This document shows positions 4,135 to 46,665 of a DNA stretch of 64,000 nt, one piece after another. The notes beneath the pieces were generated by a model, which saw only the letters and a program-made list of their open reading frames with translations, made no database searches and had not been told where the DNA came from. A program made the position numbers and the translations under genes. The DNA lies in the NCBI GenBank assembly GCA_963650485.1, contig CAVJLN010000010.1:6076-70075 (forward strand), read 5' to 3'. The DNA comes from Bacteroidaceae bacterium (GTDB lineage: Bacteria > Bacillota > Clostridia > Lachnospirales > Lachnospiraceae). Every line of letters begins with the position of its first letter. The stretch's first letter is position 1.

Positions 4135-4971
4135 CTACATCATCGGCAGTCTTGCACTCACAACACGGTCAAGCCCTGCGAAATCCTTATACACGTCAAT
4201 CTCCTTAAAGCCCGCTTCACAAAGAAGCTCACTCACAGCCTGCGCCTGTTCACTTCCGATCTCCAACAGGAGCTGACCACCCCGTTTCAGGTAATCCTGC
4301 GCCCCACCAATGATTCTCCGGTAAAAGTCGAGTCCGTCCTCTCCTCCATCCAGCGCAATATACGGATCATATTTCCGCACCTCTTCCATCAGTGTCGGAA
4401 TGACCGCCCTCTCAATATAAGGCGGATTGGATACCAGAAGATCAAACTTCCCGGTCACCTTTTCATACAGATTACTTTCCAGAAAATCTGCTTTGATGCC
4501 AAGCAGTTCCGCATTCTGCGCTGCTACCTGCAACGCTTCCTTCGAAATATCCACACCGGTTCCTTCACAGTCATTCGAATAGTGCAGAAGGCTTAACAAA
4601 ATGCACCCGGATCCGGTACAAAGATCCAGAATCCGCATGCCGTCATGCAGATACCGCATCGCCTCTTCTACCAGAATCTCGGTATCCTGTCTCGGAATCA
4701 GCACATGTTCATTTACCTGAAAGCGCAGTCCCATGAAGTCCTGATAGCCTAAAAGGTGCTGCAGCGGAACATGAACCGCTCTCTGCTCCAACGCTTTCCG
4801 GTACTGCTCTTCTTCTTCTCCGGACACCTCCCGGTCTCCGTGACAGAGCAGTGTATTGTGATCGGTTCCGCACACCTCTTCCAGCAAAAGTCTTGCATCC
4901 AGCTGTGCCTCATCAATCTCCGCCTCTTTCAGTTTCTGCATTCCCATCAGAAAGGCTTCCGTGTAATTCAT
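4135..4971 (-). CDS. prmC: Release factor glutamine methyltransferase
   Basis: [18 protein letters not shown] and NPPY motifs; adjacent to prfA. Confidence 0.95.
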
Positions 4972-6053
4972 TCTTCCCCGGTTCCTTTCTCCTTTTCGCC
5001 ATTCTTCACGGCAACCGTTTCTGCATTCTCCACAGTATCTGTACTGTCCTCTTCTACATCCTCCTCAGCCGGCACATCATCCTTCATCCAAGACTCATCC
5101 ACTTCATATCCGAATTCTTCATACAGATAATTTTTCCAATCAAACACTGCCTCAACGGATTTAATCGCTACTTCAAGCATTTCTTCATCCGGCTCTTTCG
5201 TCGTCAGTCTCTGCAGCCACATGCCGGGAGCAGAAATGATCCGGATCAGAATATTGTCACTGCGACCTGCCAGACGGATAATTTCATAGGAAATTCCCGC
5301 AATTACCGGAATCAGCGCGATCCGGAGCAGAACACGATATACCGGATTCGATACCCGGATAAAGAAAAACAGGATAATACTTACAAATACCACGAAAAAC
5401 AGGAAGCTTGTTCCGCACCGCTTATGAATACGGGAGCTCTTCATCGCATTATATACGGTAAGCGGTCTTCCCTTTTCAATGCAGTTGATGCATTTATGCT
5501 CAGCGCCATGATACTGATACAGGCGATGAATATCCTTCATCAGACTGATTGCTACAATATAAAGCAAAAAGATTGCTATACGGATGACACCCTCGATAAT
5601 CGCAAGCAGGGAATCATTTCGGATAAACCCATTCAGTAACGTGGACAGATAATACGGCAGCAGAATGAAGATTGCCATAGCCAGCACGACCGAAAGCACT
5701 GTGGTAAATCCCATCAAGATCTTCTCGCCACGTCCTCCGGAAATCTTATCAAGTGCCTTATCCAGCTTCGTTTCCTCTGCTTCTCCGTCCTCGTAAAACT
5801 GGGCAGAATGATTGATACATTTCATGCCAAGGCGAAGAGAATCAATAAAATTAAAAATGCCGCGTAAGAATGGAACCTTCGTAATTCTGCTTTCCGGAAA
5901 AAGCCCACGGAACACATCCACCTCGACATCAATTTCGCCATCGGCCTTACGGATTGCAACCGCATAATCGTCTTTATTCTTCATCATGACACCTTCCAGA
6001 ACGGCCTGTCCGCCGATTCCGGAGTAGTGTGCGGATTTTTTCTTTTTCGCCAT
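4968..6053 (-). CDS. DUF1385 family membrane protein (putative metal-dependent)
   Basis: IGGQAVLEGVMM, YHGAEHK and HKRCGTSF motifs; usual rpmE-DUF1385-prmC-prfA context. Confidence 0.88.
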   Translation of the reverse strand: MAKKKKSAHYSGIGGQAVLEGVMMKNKDDYAVAIRKADGEIDVEVDVFRGLFPESRITKVPFLRGIFNFIDSLRLGMKCINHSAQFYEDGEAEETKLDKALDKISGGRGEKILMGFTTVLSVVLAMAIFILLPYYLSTLLNGFIRNDSLLAIIEGVIRIAIFLLYIVAISLMKDIHRLYQYHGAEHKCINCIEKGRPLTVYNAMKSSRIHKRCGTSFLFFVVFVSIILFFFIRVSNPVYRVLLRIALIPVIAGISYEIIRLAGRSDNILIRIISAPGMWLQRLTTKEPDEEMLEVAIKSVEAVFDWKNYLYEEFGYEVDESWMKDDVPAEEDVEEDSTDTVENAETVAVKNGEKEKGTGEE

Positions 6054-6100
6054 TTTAAATCTCCATTTAAGTTGTGTGACAATTCAAGACTTATCCCTCT

Positions 6101-6300
6101 CACTAAACTCATGCTTCGCGTTCCGCTTGCATTCGTTAAGTGTTCCGGACTGGTTCACACTAAGTTCAAGCTGCGCTTTCACTAAGTGTACTCTACCGAC
6201 TCCACTAAATTCAGGTCTCGTCTTCGACTCACCTTCATTAAGTGTATCGGTATGGTTCGCACTAAATTCGAGTTTCTCTTACGCTCACTCTCATTAAGTG
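6101..6300. repeat. Tandem array of 4 hairpin units (CACTAARYTC-stem-TCRYTAAGTG), array 1
   Basis: Units at 6101-6142, 6158-6188, 6203-6244 and 6260-6300, separated by 14-15 nt linkers; internal stems covary. Confidence 0.9.
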
Positions 6301-6314
6301 CTCTACTCATACAC

Positions 6315-6348
6315 AAAAAAGGTTGAGATGATGTAACACCTCAACCTT
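6315..6348 (-). terminator. Intrinsic terminator after rpmE
   Basis: AAGGTTGAG...CTCAACCTT stem with a T-tract on the minus strand. Confidence 0.8.
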
Positions 6349-6358
6349 CATCGTTTCA

Positions 6359-6565
6359 CTATTTGCCTGCTACGCCATACTTCTTATTGAACTTATCAAT
6401 ACGTCCGTCAGTTCTTGCAGCCTTCTGCTGACCTGTGTAGAATGAATGACATTTGGAACAAACTTCAACGTGAATATCTTCCTTTGTTGAACCTGTTACA
6501 AAAGTGTTGCCACAGTTGCAAGTTACAGTTGCCTGATAATAATCAGGATGGATTCCTTCTCTCAT
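6359..6565 (-). CDS. rpmE: 50S ribosomal protein L31 (zinc-binding type)
   Basis: MREGIHPDY, CxC and Cxx[10 protein letters not shown]. Confidence 0.97.
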
Positions 6566-40261: not shown

Positions 40262-40479
40262 TGGTGCATCACACCTTTGTGACGGAGCTTACGAAGGGAC
40301 TAAGAAGTTCCTCTGTTTTGTTCAGCATCAGCAAGAATGGGACACGGATGTTCCATTCAGGTACAATCGAGCCCGGATGGCTCGTTGGACCGTTTGCGTC
40401 ATATTGCAATAACTTATCCAAAACAGACAGAACTTCTTAGTTCCGTAGATCAGCTCCGGAATAAAGGTGTTATGCACCA
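40262..40479 (+). ncRNA. TwoAYGGAY-like structured element with ~60-bp imperfect terminal inverted repeats
   Basis: Arms at 40262-40320 and 40419-40479; internal hairpins with loops ACGGAT (40335-40358) and CGGAT (40368-40384). Confidence 0.7.
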
Positions 40480-40493
40480 AATTAAAAGACAGA

Positions 40494-46207: not shown

Positions 46208-46366
46208 CTCTAAGTTCTGCCTTCACTTTCAGCTCGGCTTCACTAAGTGCTCTACATGTACCTGATGCACTAAACTCGGGCTGCGCCTTCGGCTTGCTCT
46301 CGTTAAGTGCACTGGTACCGTTCGCACTAAATTCGAACTTCGCCTCCGGCTCGTTCTCACTAAGTG
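46208..46366. repeat. Tandem array of 3 hairpin units, array 2 (same family as 6101-6300)
   Basis: 42-nt units at 46208-46249, 46268-46309 and 46325-46366; linkers of 18 and 15 nt. Confidence 0.9.
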
Positions 46367-46374
46367 CTCTACAT

Positions 46375-46645
46375 GAAAGAACCCTCTACAGAATTACTTC
46401 TGTAAAGGGCGTCATTTTACGCGGTACCACCTTTGTTTTTCACTCAAAACACTTCCATCCATCTGATTGAAAGCGTTATCCTTTAACGGGGATCAGCCGT
46501 GAGAACTTACCGGCTGTTGCTGCCATGCCCTTCGGTTCTCCGGTTCCAAAGCTACCTTCCCTGCTGCCTGACCGGATATTCTTTCAGCCGATGGAACATC
46601 CTCTCTGATGCCGGAATAAACAGGTACTCCTCTTTGTCACTACCT
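46375..46645 (-). ncRNA. T-box riboswitch (Val, GUA specifier) with terminator
   Basis: AGTA and AGAGA...GCTGA stem I motifs, GAAG-GTA-G specifier, T-box AAAGGTGGTACCGCG, terminator CCCTTTACAGAA...TTCTGTAGAGGG. Confidence 0.92.
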
Positions 46646-46665
46646 TTTCAAAACTTATTACATCT

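Follow-up and report, generated by a model that had tools for sequence, protein, structure and literature searches.

The spread of short palindromic repeats through bacterial genomes is still an open question, and for most repeat families of Firmicutes we know of no mechanism. The window analysed here, a stretch of 64,000 nucleotides from a Lachnospiraceae genome assembled into 198 contigs (3.26 Mb; G000), raises this question at a single intergenic locus: what is the array of hairpins at positions 6101..6300, and by what route did it arrive there? An initial annotation, made from the sequence alone, had taken it for an array-forming repeat selected for its structure. Young pairs of filled and empty sites, a junction conserved in the fold and subfamilies specific for different host signals make the mechanism of the family described below directly testable.

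The tandem array was confirmed, its four units lying at 6101-6142, 6158-6188, 6203-6244 and 6260-6300, and so were three units near 46.2 kb (46208-46249, 46268-46309 and 46325-46366), which share with the former the same sequence frame and covarying stems. On the minus strand GA is opposite GA in all seven units, and the terminal loop is a GNA triloop in six of them, the seventh being GTAA, with C-G closure in only four. The ~42-nt units are thus real; however, they are half-units of a true monomer of ~115 nt with two GA-mismatched arms. What had been read as two classes of linkers separating the units are not spacers, but sequences that pair with each other around one arm, which sets the repeat unit at ~115 nt. 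Monomers are arranged head-to-tail in arrays and measure ~95–120 nt across subfamilies. Read on the minus (GA) strand, a monomer consists of a short leader, arm B (start GTAG-A-GCAC) and then arm A, the basal stem of which is formed by the two paired 'linkers'. Each arm has a T.T mismatch and a tandem GA/GA, together with a loop (GA/GAA or AA/GCA) and a mini-hairpin at its tip. DNA folding of single units gave z-scores of -1.2 to -3.3 (five unit folds).

Comparison with three relatives (flanks 93–99% identical), in which 6067 is joined to 6313, delimits the whole insertion on the minus strand to 245 bp (6068..6312); no target duplication was seen. Monomer 1 (6194..6308, minus strand, 115 nt), defined by its sequence, a covariance-model match and pairing counts, has a 2-nt leader, a GA-mismatched arm B starting with GTAG (6255-6306) and an arm A at ~6194-6252 that includes the linker stems. 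Monomer 2 (6090..6193, minus strand), recognised from sequence and contig comparison, is a decayed copy of a different sequence variant, with an arm A core at 6101-6142 and an arm B shortened by an internal deletion. The unit 6158-6188 is the deletion derivative, the full arm being present in a 99%-identical metagenome locus (L189), and contigs of two DNA studies skip 6101-6157. The remainder (6068..6089, minus strand), missing from the empty site, is a 3' junction filler; it was not found elsewhere in the genome or among the collected loci except in orthologous copies.

The target site is the intrinsic terminator (hairpin and T-tract; 6313..6352, minus strand) of the upstream ribosomal-protein gene. 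Its hairpin (-18.2 kcal/mol) ends 11 nt before GTAG and is conserved in the empty relatives. The upstream gene itself (6359..6565, minus strand, 68 aa in the ORF list) we take from its sequence to be L31/rpmE, and the downstream gene (4968..6053, minus strand, 361 aa in the ORF list) had been labelled DUF1385 in the initial annotation. The second array (46208..46376, minus strand) comprises a full monomer (46260-46376) and a truncated arm B, and lies between the start codon of a valS-like gene and the terminator of a T-box leader (46402..46649, minus strand; Rfam RF00230, 99.6 bits), which precedes it.

Selection for the fold is borne out by strong covariation. In 35 monomers 90.6% of the cells were paired and two-sided changes occurred in 27 of the 38 pairs (134 cells), as compared to 25–34% pairing in slid controls and 0/500 in the shuffle control, counts which are not probabilities, since the monomer sequences are related. 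Among 91 further matches from other genomes, 90 or so of which are from outside genus g1, 36 of the 38 pairs change on both sides in an alignment that was fitted to the model. In 207 distinct arms, 72 G.T oppositions were counted on the GA strand versus 16 A.C, and it is therefore the GA (sense) strand that folds. The same arms have 147 triloops (91 GNA, 138 purine-N-A) and 39 tetraloops (21 GNRA), mostly closed by C-G, and no UUCG loops. Loops of the C(GNA)G type are extra-stable in DNA and are not known to be so in RNA. The wobble and loop counts thus uphold the proposal that the minus (GA) strand folds with DNA-type loops, and the G.T wobbles together with the C(GNA)G triloops favour DNA rather than RNA as the folded form. 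Energies predicted with Vienna do not confirm a DNA-specific stability of the loops: DNA parameters do not separate the strands (-10.6 vs -10.1 kcal/mol), and RNA parameters do, with the GA strand more stable (-36.1 vs -27.6 kcal/mol). A closed dumbbell fold was given no evidential weight, being the trivial outcome of two hairpins.

The units are abundant in G000 far beyond chance. Genome-wide, 37 strict and 66 loose pattern matches were obtained, and a profile matched 85 times at E<1 and 76 times at E<0.01, in 45 clusters, within each of which all matches are on one strand. The pattern also matched records named 'Firmicutes bacterium CAG:95', Lachnospiraceae and Blautia. A covariance model (R1), as had been suggested, was built and used to scan relatives; it matched 58 of 150 genomes from Lachnospiraceae, each representing a different genus, and none of 150 phylum-wide genomes, of which only one is from Lachnospiraceae. 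Among 60 congeners, four have 26–47 model matches, one has three and 55 have none, a genus-level pattern that is a clade-limited burst. Neither viral contigs (no match with two patterns) nor phage and plasmid records contained the repeat.

Rfam 15 returned nothing on the element at the gathering score, either in the 64-kb window or in sets of 6 and 16 related loci, and nothing at E<=10 over 6050-6370. A description of the family was not found in the openly searchable literature, including the accessible text of PMC5737381 and PMC8040213, and the supplements of the latter, other than files 7 and 8, had no match to six motif words. This is a real, Lachnospiraceae-restricted and REP/BIME-like mobile repeat family that has apparently not been described before. 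Only two Rfam families were found in the window: the T-box and the TwoAYGGAY RNA motif (40289-40451, plus strand; RF01731, 108.8 bits), the latter enclosed by a longer inverted repeat at ~40264-40481.

Comparison of the orthologous rpmE-DUF1385 regions revealed that the site is filled, empty or differently filled among relatives: it is empty in G313, G340 and G341, holds 245 bp in G000 and contains a different variant in G317. At a second site the element is present in G317 and G341 but missing from G000, G313 and G340, and further filled/empty pairs exist at other sites. The family is therefore mobile as well as array-forming, as proposed. Arrays also change in place. The valS site has one versus three copies with the same 3' end, other species carrying one, three or mosaic copies; one 57-nt half-unit has been precisely lost in conspecific contigs (two DNA studies); and a deletion via a 5-nt repeat occurred at an aspS-like site. 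The 3' ends differ at one site, and 3' truncation also arises after insertion. Of 65 site groups whose first monomer is complete, a set not fully de-duplicated, 47 read on for 4 nt or more into a second copy of the monomer start; given the incomplete de-duplication and the 3' truncation after insertion, the overrun is only suggestive. Adjacent full copies are 98–100% identical (three pairs), copies from different sites 79% on average, and from overrun and neighbour identity together we infer copying from a circular or multimeric template. Capture of donor flanks was considered as the source of the 3' fillers and rejected, as none of the three fillers searched was found elsewhere. Extra T's are present at filled versus empty junctions, T-tracts occurring in outgroups as well. 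The array is partly covered by contigs from RNA libraries, a coverage that does not show transcription. In three metagenome loci (L199, L200 and L209) the two flanks of the array match different G000 loci, which is due either to recombination between arrays or to misassembly.

The arrays are strictly oriented. Of the 45 in G000, 31 are located between genes co-directional with the GA strand (own gene calls), 12 have one co-directional neighbour and a contig end, and two have one opposed neighbour, so that 43 have no opposed flanking gene. In 29 of the 34 arrays that could be scored (11 of the 45 could not), the start lies 4–11 nt beyond the hairpin and T-tract of a terminator, compared with 20 of 293 intergenic positions drawn at random (p=2e-23). 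All 42 arrays on G000 contigs longer than 8 kb lie on the G-rich strand, compared with 307 of the 372 terminators (p=0.001), an excess that fits a replication-fork target equally well and that expression-weighted targets could lessen. The recommended count of copies and their strands yielded ~45 arrays, almost all on the sense strand with respect to transcription and, for the 42 scored in G000, on the G-rich strand.

In other genera monomers begin at or inside the stop codons of ribosomal-protein, pgk and gdh-like genes; element-free stop sites in G000 mostly end in TAA, and filled sites read T/GA or TA/G (the slash marks the junction). Further monomers start at tRNA 3' ends and in rRNA spacers. 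A ~95-nt short-arm subfamily starts in promoter -10 boxes: a -10-like hexamer is found at the junction in 35 of 40 matches, mostly short-arm, hand-picked from 92 matches and earlier loci, and for 15 of these 35 a -35 sequence matches at 4/6 or better (~15% by chance). The short-arm monomer ends in an extended -10 of its own. At a thyA-like promoter, five of the eight orthologous loci listed have a single TG-N-TATAAT and no element, two hold other inserts, and in G074 a -10 box is present on both sides of the monomer; judged from such sequences, insertion into the -10 box duplicates the box. The variable middle of the left hexamer tracks the element variant in each genome, which would place the junction inside the -10 box. 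Local skew is positive at only 24 of 40 promoter-type matches, an estimate made noisy by short flanks, and the orientation of these copies therefore seems to follow the promoter and not the fork.

In all subfamilies the 5' junction maps to a small loop that follows the foot of arm A. The junction words (TATAAT, TGA/TAG, T-tract) resemble the host signal that was entered, so that insertions tend to rebuild it and are tolerated; copies are nearly absent elsewhere in intergenic DNA. This targeting of signals, like the ~115-nt monomer and the strict sense-strand orientation, was missed in the initial annotation. Unrelated inserts were also observed at such sites, namely multi-hairpin inserts without an Rfam match at the rpmE terminator (L022, L024 and L025 in G318, G342 and G334, respectively) and others at the -10 site (L575 in G522 and L576 in G525), and the shared terminator and -10 sites look like common hot spots.

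The repeat resembles REP/BIME/REPIN elements in its short, intergenic, imperfect hairpins, two-unit modules, tandem arrays and high copy number, in copy-number variation at one locus and, in the subfamily of the window, in starting with GTAG. The available text of PMC3733652 defines the REP tag (GTAG/GTGG or CGTC) as lying outside base pairing, and a word search of the text of this GTAG/CGTC survey did not retrieve 'Firmicutes' or 'Clostridi'; tnpA-REP classes are given in the accessible part of PMC6006769, and that of PMC3333891 holds a model of REP spread by excised ssDNA BIME circles and rolling-circle amplification. In contrast to the unpaired REP tag, the G-C and T-A pairs at the foot of the present repeat are 100% paired, with two compensatory C-G changes, and monomers of other genera start with GAC/GGC/AAGT, paired with the 3' strand. 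Moreover, the units are head-to-tail on one strand, whereas REPs form inverted pairs, no RAYT flanks or co-occurs with the repeat, and its targets are terminator ends, -10 boxes, stop codons and tRNA ends. Hence, the repeat works like REP/BIME but falls outside that group, its tag being paired, its units not inverted and no tnpA-REP being linked to it.

With IS200/IS605 elements, which prefer the lagging template (PMC3333891, accessible part), it shares strand specificity, a mismatched hairpin and the lack of a target duplication at the rpmE site; however, it forms tandem multimers with overrun and messy 3' junctions rather than unit-length ends. As to the template, its sense strand has a leading-strand bias in G000 (42 of 42 arrays), but positive skew is seen at only 24 of 40 promoter-type matches. 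Nor is there a link to Y1 enzymes. These are encoded in 40 of 58 element genomes versus 54 of 92 others (p=0.23) and are absent from three of four array-rich congeners (G317, G340 and G341), and the two Y1 genes of G000 are broken, one of them (L001, contig C138) belonging to an IS605-type element whose tnpA is interrupted by an in-frame stop and whose second ORF, of 415 aa, is intact. No model match was found at E<=1 among 68 Y1/RT loci, in which Y1 is represented by the best-scoring subset of its matches. Seven RAYT-like loci from five element-bearing genomes carry palindromes or terminal inverted repeats (TIRs) of their own, the best model match there (E=0.03) being on a perfect palindrome; the RAYT-like Y1 genes of Lachnospiraceae at L353-L359 are flanked by their own long palindromes or TIRs. 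Folded ssDNA hairpins with fixed unpaired bases and stems of variable sequence are also characteristic of attC sites, the core boxes of which follow the consensus RYYYAAC/GTTRRRY. The core boxes of the repeat do not fit this consensus, its flanks are housekeeping genes and not cassettes, and no integron integrase (TIGR02249) scored over the cut-off in any of five genomes. A partnership with a RAYT/IS200 Y1 enzyme or an integron integrase, which had been suggested, is so far not supported, as none co-occurs with or flanks the repeat.

IS91/ISCR elements have one fixed and one variable end and insert as multimers, features that the repeat shares; however, Y2 enzymes are present in only two of five array-rich genomes and no monomer lies next to Y2 loci. 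IS110 is present in four of the five, again with no monomer near its loci, and none was found within the three sets of enzyme loci (68, 7 and 15). The terminator-adjacent insertion of the window's subfamily (29/34), and of that subfamily only, is reminiscent of group IIC introns, from which the repeat differs in its size (~115 nt), in having no ORF and no intron domains recognised by Rfam, in having a subfamily that targets promoters, and in its lack of a maturase link: group II maturases occur in 23 of 58 element genomes versus 34 of 92 others (p=0.86) and in only three of 13 element-rich genomes. Reverse transcriptase (RT) matches were not obtained in G340 and G341, and those of G000 and G317 are among phage-like genes. 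The latter, of 367 and 379 aa (L076 on G000 contig C36; L077 on G317 contig C31), are located among phage-tail-like genes and, by inspection, are likely to be parts of prophage diversity-generating retroelements.

An AAA-PD-(D/E)XK family was rejected as the enzyme, being absent from G000 and G137. The 518 ORFs next to arrays formed 283 clusters, of which 125 had no close G000 match; 57 of these were dropped by eye as shadow frames, and the remaining 68 were scanned against Pfam, the 158 with G000 matches being outside the scan. No transposase, recombinase or RT family was found in the 68 scanned clusters, and the neighbours are ordinary. Mobile genes are lost from draft assemblies, and most of the genomes are of this kind; absence of an enzyme is therefore weak evidence. 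The dispersed repeats bcr1, BOX and STAR of Firmicutes are lineage-restricted, modular or strand-biased, and intergenic, and have no known enzyme. The present repeat is likewise lineage-restricted, modular and intergenic; to our knowledge, a GA-mismatched two-arm fold with signal-specific targets is not among the features of those three families.

The reading that we put forward, and to which we assign about an even chance, is that the repeat is a non-autonomous folded-ssDNA element that is copied with overrun and that an enzyme of HUH/tyrosine type, acting in trans, joins by strand transfer to the non-template strand at transcription signals. The sense strand would fold as single-stranded DNA, the likely mobile form, probably as a small circle copied by rolling circle, overrun giving a partial second copy, with which the overrun of most copies is consistent. 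The fixed 5' end would then be joined by the strand-transfer enzyme to a T-ending host 3'-OH in DNA held open by RNA polymerase, either in a promoter open complex or at a paused terminator, and the insertion would be tolerated by virtue of rebuilding the -10 box, stop codon or T-tract. Transcription starts downstream of the -10 box, so that a junction there is untranscribed, which favours a DNA target; the noisy skew estimate for promoter-type matches counts against the fork. No circle was seen in the contigs, the form in which the DNA was available. Stop codons and tRNA ends are not obvious sites of open DNA and count against an open-DNA target. In a variant that we regard as tentative and rather doubtful, the repeat would be a transposase-less ssDNA nanocircle parasite that enters the non-template strand of RNA-polymerase bubbles by means of a host enzyme, such as an RNAP-associated type IA topoisomerase or a resident relaxase, its junction words evolving to rebuild the signals.

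Three other explanations have to be weighed against the folded-ssDNA element. The mobile form could be a sense RNA, as a linear multimer or a circle, inserted at RNA 3' ends, terminators among them, by an RT acting in trans, much as group IIC introns are. The sense strand is always the one found, terminators, tRNA ends and stop codons are landmarks at the RNA level, the GA strand is far more stable as RNA, with GNRA sequences in 21 of the 39 tetraloops, and class C introns land just past intrinsic terminators and have expanded in Firmicutes (PMC8919778, accessible text). The promoter subfamily, however, joins inside the untranscribed -10 box, triloops dominate and UUCG loops are absent, and the maturase, RT and Rfam results given above do not associate the repeat with any such machinery; the fixed end, moreover, is the 5' one, opposite to what incomplete reverse transcription of a sense RNA would presumably leave. 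We consider this route unlikely. Targeting might, alternatively, not be active at all, copies arriving by microhomology recombination or gene conversion at the junction word, selection keeping those that rebuild the signal, and tandems growing by slippage or unequal crossing-over. That the junction words of each subfamily match its own target class would follow, as would the one versus three copies with a common 3' end at the valS site, the precise half-unit loss and the 5-nt-repeat deletion, and a near-identical in-frame insert occurs in ~5/50 divergent AAA-nuclease paralogs of G074. Such a route does not explain why the junction has a fixed position in the fold, why other intergenic DNA holds almost no copies, or why there is a single-strand bias and selection for the fold in fresh copies, and the terminator targets share little sequence with the element junction. 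As an account of how the repeat spreads it seems improbable to us; microhomology and selection with in-place amplification nevertheless surely contribute to later evolution. A domesticated mRNA element, serving as a stabiliser, processing or pause signal after the stop codons or terminators of highly expressed operons, appears very improbable. In several genera copies are found repeatedly at the same ribosomal-protein, pgk and tRNA/rRNA sites, where the stop codon or tRNA end can be part of the basal stem; however, G000 has no element at these sites, the distribution within a genus is patchy, different repeat families are found at the same positions, and one variant rides inside a TIR-bounded MITE.

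A 115-nt cargo landing in signal-preserving sites would be of interest as a tool if the enzyme were found. In dominant gut bacteria, the repeat may also be rewiring promoters and read-through.

Nested and mosaic repeats were seen in several genomes. In G002 a 286-bp MITE with terminal inverted repeats and 10–13-bp target duplications, present in at least ten copies (L273-L280), carries a short-arm monomer as cargo, one copy having the monomer in the opposite orientation. In G074 a near-identical in-frame monomer (~39 codons) occupies the same position in AAA-ATPase/PD-(D/E)XK paralogs with divergent flanks (L288, L289 and L432). G034, with 62 model matches, has long mosaic arrays (L285-L287, L441-L463) in which several arm types are interleaved with a 7-nt GAGGTGY-like minisatellite. 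Another short repeat, in which a T-run follows a GATCCA-centred hairpin, has entered either arm A or the stretch that separates terminator and array (G000 C5:17181, C12:31213, C22:34453 and C41:20416; L052, L097 and L152); two or more additional repeat types with terminal GTAAC/GTTAC words are nested there as well.
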